64,000 nt of DNA from Raja brachyura (Eukaryota): contig OY740787.1 of NCBI GenBank assembly GCA_963514005.1, forward strand, positions 22,258,001 through 22,322,000, given 5' to 3'. Below are positions 1,141-7,635 of the stretch, in pieces (position 1 is the first letter of the stretch; each line of letters opens with the position of its first letter). Both the position numbers and the translations under genes were made by a program. The notes under the pieces were generated by a model, which was not told the DNA's origin, searched no databases, and saw nothing but the letters and a program-made list of their open reading frames with translations.

Positions 1141-2098
1141 TCCTTTGTGCATGTGAATTTTTCAGCCCATCAAGTCCATACTGGTTCAATGTGGAGCATT
1201 CCAGTCAGTCCCGTTACTCTACTCTTTCCTTATCGCCTCGCAATGTGATATCATTAAATGTGTTGATGCAAGAGTGTGCCGAGAGAGCTTTGGAAAAACC
1301 TGCCATCTTTAAATTCCTGTGCATGCTATTAAGTAAGTGTGTAGATAACTAATGTACACCAAGGGGCTATTCACTTGCTGATTTTTGGGCTACGTAGCAA
1401 GAAGCAGAGGGCAGTGGCTTACTGCAAATGCTGCTTAATTATTCAGCATTCACATTCTGTACCTCGAGCTTGTAACCAATGTTTTATATGAAATAGTAAT
1501 GATGGGACATGCAACTATTCTATACAGTGGTTGCTGTTTCATTGAGACAGGCAGCTTGCATTATAAAGAGTTAATGCGGTTATACTTCCCAGCACAAGAC
1601 AGGTCCTGAGAGTATCTTCTTCATTAGGTTTTTTTTTTAAAGTACACAAACAGTACACATCAAGAAGCAGATATGCAGATTTATGTAAAGACTACAGCTG
1701 CAACAATTATTCAAATGTTTGATTAATAATTTATTACAGCAGTAGTTAATTATTAATTCTGTAGCATGATAATCCATTTTCCAGAATTGACTTAACAACC
1801 TCCGTCCCAGAAGTTTACATGACAAGTGGAGTGTGCATGGAGCTGATTTAATTTTGCAAGGGTCTCAAACTAAACTAGACCAGACCGGACTTGACATCCT
1901 CGGGTCAGCAGGCCACATTACTGCAGTGGCAAATACTGTGGAGTGAATGGAAACAATTGAGAAAACATGTGTGAAATTCGTACTGCTTTGCACGGGGCAT
2001 CTTCTTCCATTTCATTTTTACAATAAACCGTCTTGCAGTAACTACTTTTAATGGAAACTTAGGCTCGGCCTCTATAGACTGAGCACCACAACTAACAA

Positions 2099-2253
2099 TA
2101 GACACAAAAAGCTGGAGTAGCTCAGCGGAACAAGCAGCATCTCTGGAGAGAAGGTGCTTCTCTCCAGAGATGCTGCCTGTCCCGCTGGGTTACTCCAGCT
2201 ATTTGTGTCTATCATCGGTTTAAACCAGCCTCTGCAGTTCCTTCCTATGTACA
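2099..2253. mobile_element. Short Penelope-type element, fold-back (inverted) copy
   Basis: Arms ~2098-2153 and ~2157-2212 are reverse complements. Flanked by the 11-bp direct repeat acaactaacaa (2088-2098, 2254-2264). Same family as 16636, 23480, 24068, 38115, 40447 and 57770. Confidence 0.75.
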
Positions 2254-2302
2254 ACAACTAACAAGTAATCGTCTTATTTCATTTCGGAGTCACGTGAGTG
2301 AC

Positions 2303-2338
2303 TTCGTGAAGAACCCGCCAGCACGCATGCGCGACATA
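2303..2338 (+). repeat. DIRS left inverted terminal repeat core
   Basis: ttcgtgaagaacccgccagcacgcatgcgcgacata is the exact reverse complement of 7527-7562. Confidence 0.95.
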
Positions 2339-2475
2339 TCGTCGCTCGCATTGCAGTCGACGGCTGGAGAGGAGCGCGGCTCGTCACCAGCCCTTCATAA
2401 GGGCCACTCAGGTAAGTACTAACAACCTTGAGTTGGTTGTTCTGTGTAAGTAATTGTGTTTTCTTCCACAGAAAC

Positions 2476-4242
2476 ATGGACAGCGGGAAAAATAAAGGCC
2501 GTAAAACTTCTACAAGGAGTTGTCGGCAACCCAACCCGGAGCCCCCCTCCACGGCAGGAGGACGGGCCGGGAAAAAGGCGCGCAAGCCGGGGAGCCCTGT
2601 ATTCACAGGATCCGGTTTACCGACGCAGCTATGCCCTAGCGGGGTACCTGCAGTACAAACAGTCGGTACAGCGCCGGAGCAGGTGCATCCTGACTCCATC
2701 TCGCTCTCACCCACTGGGTCATTTGCAGAGACGAGCAAGAGGGATTCGCGTGCTGCTGCACGGCCCTTCTCCCTGAGCCCTCTTGAAGGAGGCAGGGATG
2801 CAATTCCACTACCTAGCCCTTCGCGGGTTGAGGTCTCACCAGGAGCCACTAGGAAGTGGTCTGGTGAATCAGGCAGGCCCGAGTCCACTGGCAGACCAAG
2901 GAAGGCCAGTGTCGACTCACCACCCAGGGGGACCAGGAGGAGTCACAAGGGTGGAGCCTCGCCTAGGTCACCGCTTCCCCCGCTGGGGGCAGGTCGGGAC
3001 CGTACGCCGTCTGGGTCCAGATCAAGGACAGTCGGCAAGCCCGCGCGGACGTCGGGTCACCACGCTGCGGCGTCAGGTGCCGACCTCTCCCCACCCATGC
3101 CCTTCGAGGCAGCCGGGTCCAGCTCAGCGAAAAGGAGGCTCTTGAGCAGGTCCGCGCGGGAATCGCTCAGCTTCGCCGAGGCGGCTGGTAGCGACACATC
3201 ATCACAGTACCGATATTACCTCGACGAGGTACGGACTGCTGATCGGAGCCTCCGGAGTTCCTTCGGGCGCGAGGCCTCTTACCTCCCACACCCGCCCGAT
3301 GAAGGGCGCTTGGATCGTATGGAGAGGATATTGGAGCAAGTTCTTCTCAAACAGAAACAGGACACACACAGCTCCAGGGGACTCATGGATATATCCCCGT
3401 CCCCATCTATGGACAGCATAAGACCAGATGAGGAGGACATCCTGGTACATGCCCCAGCAGCACCTGAGGTCCCTCAGGAAGATCTGCTGGATGTGGCAGC
3501 CAAATTCGGGTTACCCATATCATCAGGACAACCCCTCAACATCAAACTGGCCGCAACCATAGATTACCTTACCAACCATCAATTGCAGGAGAAGGTCCTT
3601 GTGAAGGCCATGGAGAGACACAAGGCTCCAGGGAACTGCAATTCACTCCACGTGCCGATTGTGAACATGCCAATCTGGGGTAATATCAGCCCGGGCATCA
3701 GAGCGCAGGAAGTGAAACTGCAGAGGATTTTAAAATTACTTACGTCTGGGATCACCGCTTTTGCAAAGTCGGTAGATGGGGTTGATCTAAGCACCGAACA
3801 GGAGGATGCTCTAGCTCTGCTCTGCAATACGCAGTACGAGATCAACGCTTTCCGGAAGAGCATTATTAAACCTTCCTTGAATCCCAAATTTGCGGGACTA
3901 TGCAGAGCACCTCCTACCCCCCCACCTAGACAGCTGTTCGGGGAAGACCTCCCAAAGCAGGTCAAAGAGCTGGATGACCATGCGAAAACCATAGGTCTGA
4001 TGAGACCACATTTTGTGGCCAGACCTTCGGCCAAGAAGACACCTTACTTCAGGCCACGAGGTCAGACCGACAGGCCAACAAGGACCTACGTTCCGGCACC
4101 TCCTCAATATCAACAGCCTCCTCAGCCCAGGCCTTTTTTAGGGCTAGGCCCTCAGCGGCCAGCATGGAAGATGCGGATTCCGCACCAACCACGAAACCCA
4201 GCACCTCCACGTCCCACCAAAAATCCCAGGGACCGCCGATAA
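2476..4242 (+). CDS. DIRS ORF1 (Gag-like), intact, 588 aa from ATG 2476
   Basis: Open frame 2428-4242 with first ATG at 2476 (MDSGKNK). Low-complexity S/P/R-rich N-terminus. C-terminal region VPIVNMPIW...DALALL...RKSIIKPSLNPKF...LFGEDL is typical of DIRS ORF1. Confidence 0.85.
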   Translation: MDSGKNKGRKTSTRSCRQPNPEPPSTAGGRAGKKARKPGSPVFTGSGLPTQLCPSGVPAVQTVGTAPEQVHPDSISLSPTGSFAETSKRDSRAAARPFSLSPLEGGRDAIPLPSPSRVEVSPGATRKWSGESGRPESTGRPRKASVDSPPRGTRRSHKGGASPRSPLPPLGAGRDRTPSGSRSRTVGKPARTSGHHAAASGADLSPPMPFEAAGSSSAKRRLLSRSARESLSFAEAAGSDTSSQYRYYLDEVRTADRSLRSSFGREASYLPHPPDEGRLDRMERILEQVLLKQKQDTHSSRGLMDISPSPSMDSIRPDEEDILVHAPAAPEVPQEDLLDVAAKFGLPISSGQPLNIKLAATIDYLTNHQLQEKVLVKAMERHKAPGNCNSLHVPIVNMPIWGNISPGIRAQEVKLQRILKLLTSGITAFAKSVDGVDLSTEQEDALALLCNTQYEINAFRKSIIKPSLNPKFAGLCRAPPTPPPRQLFGEDLPKQVKELDDHAKTIGLMRPHFVARPSAKKTPYFRPRGQTDRPTRTYVPAPPQYQQPPQPRPFLGLGPQRPAWKMRIPHQPRNPAPPRPTKNPRDRR

Positions 4243-6173
4243 CCATGAAGGTAAGGGGGTCTGGATTCCATGCACTTGCATGTCTAACCTCACGAGTTGG
4301 GGGCAGATTACGGGGATTTAAGGAGGCTTGGGAAACCATCACTTCAGATGAGTTTATCTTGCAAAGTATTCAGGGTTATGAAATTGAGTTTATTCATGGC
4401 CAATTGCCTCCACCCCAGCATATGACGAATCACAAATTTGTACTTTCCAAAAAAGAATTGGCAGAAGGCTATGCTGAAATCTTGAGTTTACAAGACAAAG
4501 GTGTGATAGAACGAACCACACATGAACCAATTGAATTTGTGTCTAATATATTTACTAAAACTAAAAAAGACGGTGGATGCCGGGTCATTATAGATTTAAC
4601 TCACTTGAATACCTTTGTAAAATACACCCATTTCAAAATGGACACATTTGAAACAGCCAAATCTTTGATTTCGGAGGGCTGCTTCATGGCATGCATTGAT
4701 TTAAAAGATGCATACTATTCAGTATCCATTCGGAGACATCATAGGAAGTTCTTGAAGTTTACCTGGATGGATCAGCTTTGGCAATACAAAGCATTGCCCA
4801 ATGGGCTTACTACAGCCCCCAGACTGTTCACCAAACTACTCAAGCCAGTGTTATCTACACTGCGGAGACAAAATCATACGGTCATGGCCTATTTGGATGA
4901 CATTCTGATAATTGGGCACACTCTGGAATCAGCAGAGTTGGCGGTTTCAGCCACAGTGTAAATTTTTCAAAAAATGGGGTTTATAATCCATCCAGACAAA
5001 TCAAAGTTCCTCCCCGCACAGATCATGGACTACTTGGGGTTCACGATAGACTCCAATCGCATGATCACCACCATCCCAACTAACAAAGTTCGTGATGTGT
5101 TTCAAGCATGCAAGAACCTGGTCTGCGCCAGTATACCGTCTATCAGATTAACTGCCAGGGTAATTGGCAAAATTGTAGCAGTATTTCCAGCTGCTCAATA
5201 TGGACCTTTACACTATCAGAATTTACAAAGGTAAAAAATAACAGCATTAAAACTAAATGCTGGACATTATGATAGACCTATGCAGTTGCCGGTTAAGGCA
5301 AAACTTGAGTTACTATGGTGGATTGGCAATATCCATAACTCATTTAAACCCATCATTGTGCCTCGTCCAATGGTATACTTGCAAACAGATGCAAGCTCCC
5401 ATGGCTGGGGAGCTACGGACAACAACAACAGTTGTGGAGGTAGATGGGATTCACTTGAAGCTACTTTGTTGTTAGCACAAGGGATAAACTATTTGGAGAT
5501 GCTAGGAGCATTCCACGGACTAAGAGCCTATTGTTCAAACATGACTAACACTCATGTCCGTCTCCAAATAGACAATACCACTGCGGTGGCTTATCTGAAT
5601 CGTATGGGTGGTACCAGGTCAATTTCATGCAATGAATTGGCAAACACAATTTGGCTCTGGTGTATTCAACGGAATATTTGGATCTCAGCTACCTACTTGC
5701 CAGGTGAGCTCAATACAGTGGCGGACACCAGGTCACGGAAGTTCAATGACAACATCGAGTGGATGTTGAACCCCCAAATATTCACCAAAATTACAGCCAA
5801 ATTTGGTAAACCGGATATTAACCTTTTTGCGTCACGGTTGAACCATCAGGTACCAACATACGTATCATGGGAGCCAGATCCTGGGGCAATGGCGATGGAC
5901 GCATTCTCGCTAGACTGGGGGAAATGGTTCTTCTATGCCTTTCCTCCATTCTGCCTCATCAGTCGGGTATTGCGGAAAATCCAGCTCGATGCTGCCAAGG
6001 GCATCCTCATTATACCCGACTGGCCTACGCAATCATGGTATCCGGTGGTCCTTGGAATGATAAGTCAACCATGGGTCCTCTTAGAGGGTTGCCCACAATT
6101 GGTGACGAACCCTGCCACAGGGGAACCACACCCCTGCCATAGTCATTTGAATCTATTGGCTTGCAGGATCTGA
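4164..6173 (+). pseudogene. DIRS pol (reverse transcriptase - RNase H - adenine methyltransferase-like) with two in-frame TAA stops
   Basis: ORFs 4164-4961, 4974-5234 and 5280-6173 share one frame, broken by TAA at 4959-4961 and 5232-5234. RT motifs: IDLKDAY, LPNGL, YLDD (4890-4901), YLGF. RNase H: TDAS, INYLEM, DNTT, ADTRSR. MT-like: NLFAS, DAFSLDW, YAFPPF. Confidence 0.93.
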
Positions 6174-7150
6174 ACAGGCCACTACTTCAGTATGGTCTAT
6201 CTTCAATGACAATGGATACCATGGGAGCATCATGCAGGGAGTCCTCAAGACGGCAGTACTTATCGTACATCAGGAAATGGGAATCCTATTGTGGCCGCAT
6301 GGACGTTGCATATGACTCCGTCTCCATCACAGATGTGCTGGAATTTCTTGCGGGGCTACACCATGATCAACATCTCAGCTATAGTGCCATCAATAGCGCC
6401 AGGAGTGCGCTATCGTCCTACCTCAATATTGAGGTAGGATCCAATAAATTGGTCTCCAAACTTATGCGGGGGATATTTAATTCCAACCCGCCGAGGCCCC
6501 GTTACAACGTCACATGGGATATTGGCAAAGTGCTGACCCTGCTGAGAACATGGTCACCCATGACGGGGCTCGAATTGGACAAACTCACCCTAAAGGTGGT
6601 GATGTTGATGGCACTTACTTCAGCACAAAGGGTGCAAACGCTTCACAAGGCCAAGATCGACAGAATGATCTCTACCCCTGAACGGGTCACTTTCTTCATT
6701 GATGAATTGCTCAAGCAGCATAGACCTGGATTTACAGGGCTGCAGCTGGAGTTTCCAGCATACCCCGCTGATGCTAGGCTATGCATAGCCACCCATATCC
6801 GCCACTATATCAAAGTGACGAGGAAAATAAGGGGAATGGAGCAATACCTGTTCATCAGTCACAAAAAACCTCACCATAGAGTGACGGTGCAGACGATATC
6901 CCGATGGCTCAGGATCGTCTTGAACAAGGCAGGTATTGACACTGATGTTTTTAAATCCCATTCCACCAGGGCAGCATCAACATCGGCGGCAAAGGTCATG
7001 GAGGTGCCCATGGACCAGATACTTGCCACAGCGGGATGGGCCAGTGAAGCCACTTTTCAACGGTTTTACAACAAACCCGTCACCGTACCTGGAATGTTCG
7101 CAGGAGCCATGCTGGATGCAGGCCGAGAGCATACAGTTACCCCTCAGTGA
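6161..7150 (+). CDS. DIRS tyrosine recombinase (YR), intact
   Basis: 329-aa ORF. N-terminal SAM-like region (YSAINSARSALS), catalytic R (SAQRV), HSTR, AGW, and catalytic Y (FQRFYNK). Overlaps the pol stop. True start is uncertain (see findings). Confidence 0.92.
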   Translation: MQDLNRPLLQYGLSSMTMDTMGASCRESSRRQYLSYIRKWESYCGRMDVAYDSVSITDVLEFLAGLHHDQHLSYSAINSARSALSSYLNIEVGSNKLVSKLMRGIFNSNPPRPRYNVTWDIGKVLTLLRTWSPMTGLELDKLTLKVVMLMALTSAQRVQTLHKAKIDRMISTPERVTFFIDELLKQHRPGFTGLQLEFPAYPADARLCIATHIRHYIKVTRKIRGMEQYLFISHKKPHHRVTVQTISRWLRIVLNKAGIDTDVFKSHSTRAASTSAAKVMEVPMDQILATAGWASEATFQRFYNKPVTVPGMFAGAMLDAGREHTVTPQ

Positions 7151-7294
7151 GGGGCCTTTCTTGTTGTTATTAATAAATATTATTACTTTTTCAGAGAAAC
7201 AGGGACGGAAATTGATTACTGCTGTCCACCTTTTCAGTAGCGTGTGTGATAGCATGGACGTTGTCCAGGGCGTGAAATCACAGAAGCTTTGAAG

Positions 7295-7407
7295 TCTTCA
7301 CGAAATCACTCACGTGACTCCGAAATGAAATAGTAAGATTAAACGAGAACTTACCAGTTTGAAGTTTGATCTTTATTTTATGAGGAGTTGCGATGAGGGA
7401 TTTCGTG
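7295..7407 (+). repeat. DIRS internal complementary region (ICR)
   Basis: 7295-7332 is the reverse complement of 2275-2312 (1 mismatch). 7331-7407 is the exact reverse complement of 7557-7633. Confidence 0.95.
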
Positions 7408-7526
7408 CCCTCCGCTCCCAACCCTCGATCATAAAGTCAACTGGTAACTAGAGTCTCTTCAATCTTACTATAACAAGTCATTTCTTGGCTTGTTTTTTTC
7501 TGTGATTCCACACCGCGGCTTTGAAG

Positions 7527-7635
7527 TATGTCGCGCATGCGTGCTGGCGGGTTCTTCACGAAATCCCTCATCGCAACTCCTCATAAAATAAAGATCAAAC
7601 TTCAAACTGGTAAGTTCTCGTTTAATCTTACTATT
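7527..7635 (-). repeat. DIRS right ITR plus right-end extension
   Basis: ITR core 7527-7562, followed by an extension complementary to the ICR. Confidence 0.93.

Follow-up and report, generated by a model that had tools for sequence, protein, structure and literature searches.

A conserved, retrovirus-like slippery sequence as the likely −1 frameshift site of a DIRS1-like retrotransposon

How does a retrotransposon whose gag frame overlaps pol, and whose pol frame overlaps that of a recombinase, produce the second and third of these proteins? The question is raised by an element in a 64,000-nucleotide stretch of Raja brachyura DNA (GenBank assembly GCA_963514005.1, contig OY740787.1, positions 22,258,001 to 22,322,000), hereafter the window, in which all coordinates are given. 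A first-pass annotation of this DNA inferred that Pol is made by −1 frameshifting at the gag-pol overlap, by splicing of position 2411 to position 4142, or by both. Our analysis supports the frameshifting arm of that proposal, whereas the splicing arm fails when conservation of the acceptor AG is considered. We put at roughly 0.8 the probability that positions 4134-4140 are a programmed −1 frameshift site, by which unspliced RNA would give rise to a Gag-Pol fusion, and RNA spliced between 4250 and 6167 to a Gag-recombinase fusion; this estimate comes from comparative sequence analysis.

Structure and abundance of the element

Positions 2266-7635 of the window are a DIRS1-like retrotransposon (Table 1). 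The first-pass annotation had assigned the element to the DIRS class, and we found a recombinase, a reverse transcriptase, inverted termini, along with an internal complementary region (ICR). Within the inverted termini, positions 2295-2338 pair with 7527-7570 (95%); the ICR is complementary to the left end at 7295-7341 (91% over 47 nt) and to the right end at 7329-7407 (100% over 79 nt). Pfam searches identified a reverse transcriptase in pol (RVT_1, E 3e-14), and both Phage_integrase (E 1.2e-07; 32.1 bits, with a cut-off of 27.1) and Phage_int_SAM_4 (E 6.1e-06) in the recombinase. The Dam match at the end of pol is weak (E 0.0022, with 18.1 bits against a cut-off of 28.1), and the same family is also given for some pol homologues. 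There was no Pfam match for the gag-like ORF1, and none for RNase H in pol at E 0.01; the pol translation does contain a T-D-A-S motif, which we take to be a sign of a putative RNase H.

The same set of features (gag-like ORF, reverse transcriptase, putative Dam-like domain, recombinase, overlapping ORFs, inverted termini and ICR) appears in the portions of published descriptions of DIRS1-like elements that we covered (PMC3266345, PMC7192593, bioRxiv 10.1101/2021.08.05.455354); those portions describe the overlap of the ORFs, and give no slippery site, Gag-Pol fusion or pol-removing splice.

Table 1. Features of the element, with positions counted from the first base of the window
Feature	Position	Strand	Basis or remark
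Left terminal inverted repeat	2266..2338	+	Complementary to 7295-7341 and 7527-7570; exact first base not fixed
Predicted GT-AG leader intron, 60 nt	2412..2471	+	CAG/GTAAGT and ttttcttccacag/; natural partner of the 2411 donor
Gag-like ORF1, 588 aa	2476..4242	+	P-F-L-G near its end, encoded by the slippery site
Pol frame: reverse transcriptase, putative RNase H, candidate Dam-like methyltransferase	3978..6173	+	ORF and Pfam
Slippery heptamer T TTT TTA, likely −1 ribosomal frameshift site	4134..4140	+	Phase and conservation
AG proposed as splice acceptor	4140..4141	+	Unsupported as a conserved acceptor
Dual-coding stretch	4141..4250	+	Frame 0 encodes the gag tail, the pol frame an S/T/P-rich transframe linker
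Small hairpin, candidate weak frameshift stimulator	4143..4163	+	Folding in the studied copy; cross-family folding peak
Splice donor AAG/GTAAGG, cut 4250/4251	4248..4256	+	Between pol-frame codons; 8 nt past gag stop
Splice acceptor TTGCAG/	6161..6166	+	Ahead of recombinase, between recombinase-frame codons
Tyrosine recombinase coding region	6167..7150	+	Phage_integrase and Phage_int_SAM_4
Internal complementary region (ICR)	7295..7407	+	Complementary to both ends
Right terminal inverted repeat and extension	7527..7635	+	Complementarity to left end

The family to which the element belongs is young and abundant. Forty scored genomic matches are 99-100% identical over 601 nt, and the 2.7-Gb genome contains 1,059 and 1,109 exact copies of two 20-mer motifs of the element, counts that include close subfamilies. 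Named homologues with 53-54% identity point to a cartilaginous fish as the probable host. Pol is broken in the studied copy by stops at 4959-4961 and 5232-5234, the first absent from all 29 other copies compared and the second from 28 of them.

Slippery sequences at the gag-pol overlap

The gag frame reads CCT TTT TTA GGG near its end, so the heptamer T TTT TTA described in the first-pass annotation does lie in X XXY YYZ phase. Pol is the −1 frame, as had also been stated; it reads F-R-A-R-P-S-A-A-S-M-E-D and is open from 3978 into the reverse transcriptase domain. A single heptamer of this kind is not beyond chance, since the element contains 18 X XXY YYZ matches. Positions 4125-4144 are identical in the 29 closest copies, but those copies are about 99% alike and were chosen by identity, and are thus uninformative on conservation.

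More distant relatives provide a better comparison. Eighty metagenome loci were fetched by pol alignment, of which 73 had a locatable pol start motif (the other seven were dropped); together with five loci from the same genome they formed 56 clusters at 80% identity, with pol 38-68% identical to that of the studied family (51 clusters compared). Counting TTTTTTA and AAAAAAC up to 360 nt upstream of the pol start motif, we found 41 in the −1 phase, and 5 and 1 in the other two phases. Looser clustering preserved this bias, with phase counts of 32/5/1 for 43 clusters (65% identity) and 9/3/1 for 18 clusters (55%). In the interval from −260 to −90, which was picked after inspecting the data, the counts over 9,520 nt were 39/4/0; the pol body gave 5/2/4 over 50,400 nt, and sequence lying further upstream 3/1/1 over 20,936 nt. 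Because the clusters share ancestry, binomial P values for the phase bias are too small. On this sequence comparison, the place and phase of the heptamer exceed chance; both are kept across families, which is the outcome of a check that the first-pass annotation had suggested.

The base that completes the heptamer is also constrained. Among phase-0 sites, the seventh base after six Ts is A in 30 cases and G in five, and never C or T; after six As it is C in 11 cases, G in five and T in one, and never A. A after six Ts and C after six As make the best-known eukaryotic slip sites. AAAAAAC takes the place of TTTTTTA in 10 clusters, and GGGTTTT in two. A quick tree built from 45 of the 56 rows (11 were omitted for stops or short length) requires four changes to account for the AAAAAAC state, at least two of them forced by starred branches.

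The pol frame is open at 37 of the 39 in-phase sites, with the gag stop 58-154 nt downstream of the site; 22 of these 37 sites read TTTTTTAG, six read TTTTTTAT and nine read AAAAAAC. The pol frame opens a median of 42 nt before the site, and only 0-15 nt before it in 10 of 37 cases. There is no pol-frame ATG between the site and the pol start motif in 22 of the 37. A clade of three elements has no heptamer, and has gag and pol in one ORF, so that a gag-pol fusion occurs as a natural form. These three elements are among the 17 of 56 clusters that lack an in-phase TTTTTTA or AAAAAAC between −260 and −90; the others comprise two with GGGTTTT, four with TTTTTTG, one with AAAAAAC just beyond the window, three with out-of-phase sites, which are possibly damaged copies, and four that are unexplained.

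The slippery site is also retained by sister families in the same genome. Family B, whose gag and pol are 61% and 74% identical to those of the studied family (family A), has TTTTTTAGG in all 30 fetched copies with phase unchanged, and families C and D retain the site too. In family C a pol-frame stop lies two codons ahead of the site, so the site is where the pol frame begins. Of the 27 loci in this comparison, a point variant of the site was seen in one and an interruption at the site in two.

The first-pass annotation also described a hairpin downstream of the heptamer. This hairpin does form in silico, at about −10.9 kcal/mol, but in the studied copy it is not clearly beyond chance: over 23 nt its z score is −1.80, with 15 of 200 shuffles equally good, and three longer windows give z scores of −0.6 to −1.2. 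Stimulatory structures of −1 frameshift signals are expected 5-9 nt downstream of the heptamer. The spacer here is an atypical 2 nt, or 6 nt if measured to the 4-bp core. That core has one compensatory pair in family B and a mismatch in family C, and family D has another predicted fold. When 36-nt windows from 39 families were folded, predicted structure peaked 3-6 nt past the site (mean z −1.2), with z below −1.64 in 16 and 14 of the 39 families at the peak, whereas 11 offsets distant from the site gave 3-8 of 39. Twenty-three of the 39 families have no significant local structure at the site; given so modest a structural signal, the heptamer and its context may be what many families depend on.

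Splice sites around gag and pol

A splice that skips pol appears to connect the end of gag to the recombinase. The best donor shortly before the pol start motif is in pol phase 0 in 51 of the 56 clusters, and a donor score of at least 4 was found in 43 clusters (0-3 in four control windows). Of 43 loci, 30 have their best acceptor within the open recombinase frame in phase 0. The serine that follows F-P-P-F in pol is encoded by AGY in 25 of 26 cases, against a background of 390 in 1,555, and an AG occurs at this serine in 23 of the 25 loci with a recombinase frame open there, versus 2 of the 16 in which it is closed; the predicted acceptor position thus moves with the boundary of the recombinase frame. 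Donor and acceptor scores throughout are home-made heuristics built from consensus frequencies, and even the junction-supported acceptor at 6166 scores low (1.5). We also considered, and rejected, another frameshift that would lead from pol into the recombinase: there is an in-phase heptamer in 10 of 43 overlaps, but none is TTTTTTA or AAAAAAC, and there is none in the studied copy.

We reasoned that spliced RNA of a retroelement can return to DNA, and sought genomic copies of each donor that are followed by something other than GT. Four pol-less genomic copies carry the exact equivalent of a junction between 4250 and 6167. Two of them (L175 and L177) are among the five non-GT sequences in 1,064 matches to the 4250 motif; the other two (L179 and L180) are two of the four matches to a second probe, the remaining two (L181 and L182) not being junctions. 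Six of the eight non-GT matches to the two donors (2411 and 4250) are point or small variants. The four pol-less copies are perhaps two pairs of relatives, and so two events only, and AG/G is present on both sides of the junction, such that a deletion at 3-nt microhomology is possible. All four copies retain gag; L179 and L180 have an intact, in-phase heptamer, and the pol frame continues across the junction into the recombinase. Any recombinase RNA that was copied back to give these loci had thus not used the AG of the slip site.

This bears on the most serious alternative, which is that the slip works and the same bases also serve as a splice acceptor, so that an mRNA spliced from 2411 to 4142 starts Pol or the recombinase at ATG 4164. 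The sequence details that led to this proposal in the first-pass annotation are correct: TAG/G lies at 4139-4142, and agcATGG at 4164, 22 nt past the AG. The 109-nt exon 4142-4250 would be in the recombinase frame, ATG 4164 is the first ATG past the AG in families A and C, and the AG ranks 15th among the 303 AGs of the element by our heuristic score. Moreover, TTTTTTAG is kept in all four families of the genome and in the 11-row clade that contains them, and the G that follows TTTTTTA at 23 of 29 sites leaves room for some acceptor use. Nonetheless, the role of acceptor does not hold up in the comparison of families, since the AG is present at 22 of the 37 in-phase sites and absent from 15. 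Nor does the AG generally lead to a pol-frame ATG; just 9 of the 22 AG-bearing families have their first ATG in that frame, and a role for the AG in feeding ATG 4164 is unsupported. Families B and D1 keep the AG but have no pol-frame ATG, their first ATG being in another frame. AG-bearing families are not enriched for pyrimidines in the 14 nt upstream (0.41, n = 22, versus 0.48, n = 15, in families without the AG), and a competing AG lies no more than 22 nt upstream in 21 of the 22. In the studied copy the acceptor is mediocre, with eight pyrimidines and other AGs at 4125 and 4130; its heuristic score is 0.9, versus 8.2 for the acceptor at 2471.

The genomic search for returned copies points the same way. 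Among the 1,112 matches to the 2411 donor we found no joint to 4142, whereas the 4250 motif yielded two exact junctions; 1,109 of the 2411 matches are followed by GT, and the three that are not are all point variants. The lack of 2411-4142 junctions is only a weak negative, because no copy without the leader intron was found either, and gag-less RNA may escape packaging. Contigs from five of seven sequencing runs that contain the element, none of them recorded as RNA, look genomic; the joints listed for them include none at 2411-2472, 2411-4142 or 4250-6167, a result that favours neither side. Family B has a counterpart of the leader intron with a differing sequence. The leader ATG at 2327 was considered as a start for spliced Pol and rejected; joined to 4142 it reads the gag frame, and in family B a stop follows after six codons. 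Taken together, we consider it unlikely that the slippery bases also work as an acceptor, although the AG may see minor use in the studied family alone. The AG is likely to be a by-product of the slippery sequence and a following codon that starts with G, as in HIV-1, where a conserved GGG after U UUU UUA supports frameshifting in the portion covered of one study (PMC4373837). This function of GGG in HIV-1 is a possible reason for the G that creates the AG here.

Alternatively, ribosomes could begin Pol at codon 4245, just past the gag stop (TAA CC ATG), through leaky initiation or re-initiation. The stretch between the slip site and the 4250 donor contains ATG 4164, the gag stop (4240-4242) and ATG 4245. 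Families A and C have two pol-frame ATGs before the donor, from which Pol or the recombinase could be started with no slip; at the positions of the two ATGs, family B has GTG and ACG, and D1 has TTG at both. Codon 4245 lies in a conserved ACC-nnG-RAG context; it is ATG, ACG or TTG across the genome's four families, and A, B, C, D1 and D2 all have a start or near-start codon there. However, 26 of the 37 families have no pol-frame ATG between the site and the donor (near-cognate codons were uncounted in the invertebrate set), and initiation at 4245 would leave unexplained the phased heptamer 110 nt upstream, the AAAAAAC swap and the open pol frame over the gag tail. We regard this route as a very improbable main source of Pol.

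Still less probable is that there is no slip, and Pol comes solely from mRNA spliced into the AG. The studied copy does combine a strong donor at 2411 with the good context of ATG 4164, but the AG is missing at the 15 sites noted above, an acceptor ahead of an ATG needs no fixed phase, and gag contains no GTRAG donor that would give an in-frame start.

Equally remote is the idea that the homopolymer run reflects polymerase slippage, in transcription or reverse transcription, or is a mere coding trace of an F-L-G peptide: reverse transcriptase slippage has been described in vitro at the HIV U6A motif (PMC5737442, in the part covered), and an xFLx motif occurs within the last 60 aa of 86 of 109 gag homologues of at least 300 aa (1 of 109 in a control segment), but an extra base shifts the frame wherever the run is placed, so that no phase bias is expected, the GGGTTTT variants lack a long run, AAAAAAC encodes K-N instead, and T TTT TTA encodes none of the 150 F-L dipeptides present in the pol body.

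Proposed expression and related systems

We propose that programmed frameshifting at 4134-4140 would operate as follows. Most ribosomes would not slip, and would make Gag alone. A fraction would slip by −1 at the heptamer, perhaps aided by the small hairpin and by the G-starting next codon, and would enter a 36-codon linker in the pol frame. The linker would lead into Pol on unspliced RNA, and into the recombinase where 4250 had been spliced to 6167; the recombinase would then be made as a fusion behind Gag. The pol-less genomic copies would be retrotransposed spliced RNAs. ATG 4164 and ATG 4245 may offer an extra route in the studied family, one that its relatives manage without.

More broadly, we lean towards the view that a large animal branch of DIRS1-like elements runs on one recoding switch, in which a slip at U UUU UUA or A AAA AAC is followed by a choice at the post-gag donor between reverse transcriptase and recombinase, both made as Gag fusions in a set ratio and co-packaged. 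If so, frameshifting and splicing would act in series on one mRNA, which would explain how a recombinase that often lacks a start codon is made and delivered together with the capsid. A conserved and swappable slip site would extend −1 frameshifting to tyrosine-recombinase retrotransposons, and would offer dozens of natural slip-site variants with little or no stimulatory structure.

The slip site is conserved across the families compared here and likely works in the manner of a retroviral gag-pol −1 site. In the portion covered of the HIV-1 study (PMC4373837), the similarities extend to U UUU UUA GGG, to F-L-G in Gag, to pol in the −1 frame and to a stem-loop that starts from the next codon. 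The element is nonetheless not a retrovirus. We detected no protease or DDE integrase, the hairpin is far smaller than that of HIV-1, relatives swap the heptamer to A AAA AAC or G GGU UUU, and the slip would also feed a spliced recombinase exon. A search of viral contigs yielded no relatives. Animal LTR retrotransposons share the recoding logic of Gag versus Gag-Pol; in the part covered of one survey, pol is in the −1 frame in 28 of 51 elements, many of them with heptamers (PMC5009743). Their integrase lies within Pol, whereas here a separate recombinase would be reached by splicing out pol.

Among the best-ranked results of a literature search, none described frameshifting or pol-removing splicing in DIRS elements, although older DIRS reviews may propose it. 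The covered portions of eight reports (PMC7192593, PMC3266345, PMC3950715, PMC4495291, PMC6681497, PMC3783388, bioRxiv 10.1101/2021.08.05.455354 and 10.64898/2026.05.21.726589) give no route of DIRS ORF expression; a term search of PMC8547959 returned no matches, and 'DIRS' does not occur in the first 300,000 of the 449,034 characters of PMC5009743.

The splicing component of the frameshift-and-splice scheme has parallels of its own. Retroviral env, Drosophila copia gag and foamy virus pol are expressed from spliced subgenomic RNAs. As here, one genomic RNA is spliced to switch the ORF that is expressed, and foamy virus pol is the model for the acceptor proposed in the first-pass annotation. 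Unlike in those systems, the supported splice in this element starts past the gag stop and removes pol, and only ribosomes that had previously moved into the pol frame would translate the downstream exon.

Recognition of this scheme would also mend gene annotations that now force false introns across such loci. Three RefSeq models from two echinoderms, all automated predictions, read gag, the pol-frame linker through F-F-R, and the recombinase: XP_071502116.1 from Diadema antillarum, and XP_072032829.1 and XP_072043497.1 from Amphiura filiformis.

Pol-less copies, and where the recombinase acceptor lies

Four genomic copies lack pol (L175, G000:C29; L177, G000:C45; L179, G000:C5; L180, G000:C17). 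They fall into two subfamilies, and in each of them the post-gag donor is joined exactly to the acceptor that precedes the recombinase. The copies are likely to be spliced RNAs that were retrotransposed. In many families the recombinase acceptor is embedded in the pol codons for F-P-P-F-S; in other families it is shifted to positions 0, -72 or -81, the acceptor position following the point at which the recombinase frame opens.

Positions of splice-related features in the window and in compared loci
Feature	Position	Context or loci
Predicted leader intron, 60 nt, strong splice sites	window 2412-2471	before gag ATG
Paired donors	61-154 nt upstream of pol start motif	L100, L108, L114
F-P-P-F-S acceptor, pol methyltransferase region	~213-216 nt before recombinase start	~23 metagenome loci
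Equivalent of F-P-P-F-S acceptor region	window 5940-5962	

The codon after the gag stop and the leader intron

Behind the gag stop comes an ATG, ACG or TTG codon (window 4243-4250, with equivalents in the compared loci L061, L064, L070 and L073); its ACC context is conserved, and the donor lies immediately 3' of it. The leader intron has a counterpart in sister family B, and none of the 1,112 donor matches represented a genomic copy from which this intron was missing.

Departures from the common gag-pol arrangement

In one clade (L100, L108 and L114), a single ORF spans gag and pol, and the heptamer is absent. All three loci have paired donors, AG|GTGAG|GTAAGC, spaced 5 nt apart, one in frame and the other out of frame, such that the choice of donor could yield either Gag-recombinase or Gag alone. 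Rarer in-phase heptamers are GGGTTTT, in one clade (L117, L145), and TTTTTTG, in four clusters (L111, L121, L127, L167). An additional DIRS family in the same genome (L181, L182) carries TTTTTTAGG, which is not in phase with the ATG-donor motif downstream; this family is damaged or built differently.

Three automated RefSeq models (P0211, P0313 and P0393) switch from the gag to the pol frame upstream of the slip site, apparently by means of an artificial intron. It is possible that this intron is the annotation trace of unrecognised frameshifting.

A dispersed repeat beside the element

A short dispersed repeat is present as a head-to-head pair just upstream of the element (window 2098-2212); the 56 nt arms of the pair are 91% complementary and separated by 3 nt. 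The same repeat occurs at about eight places within the window.
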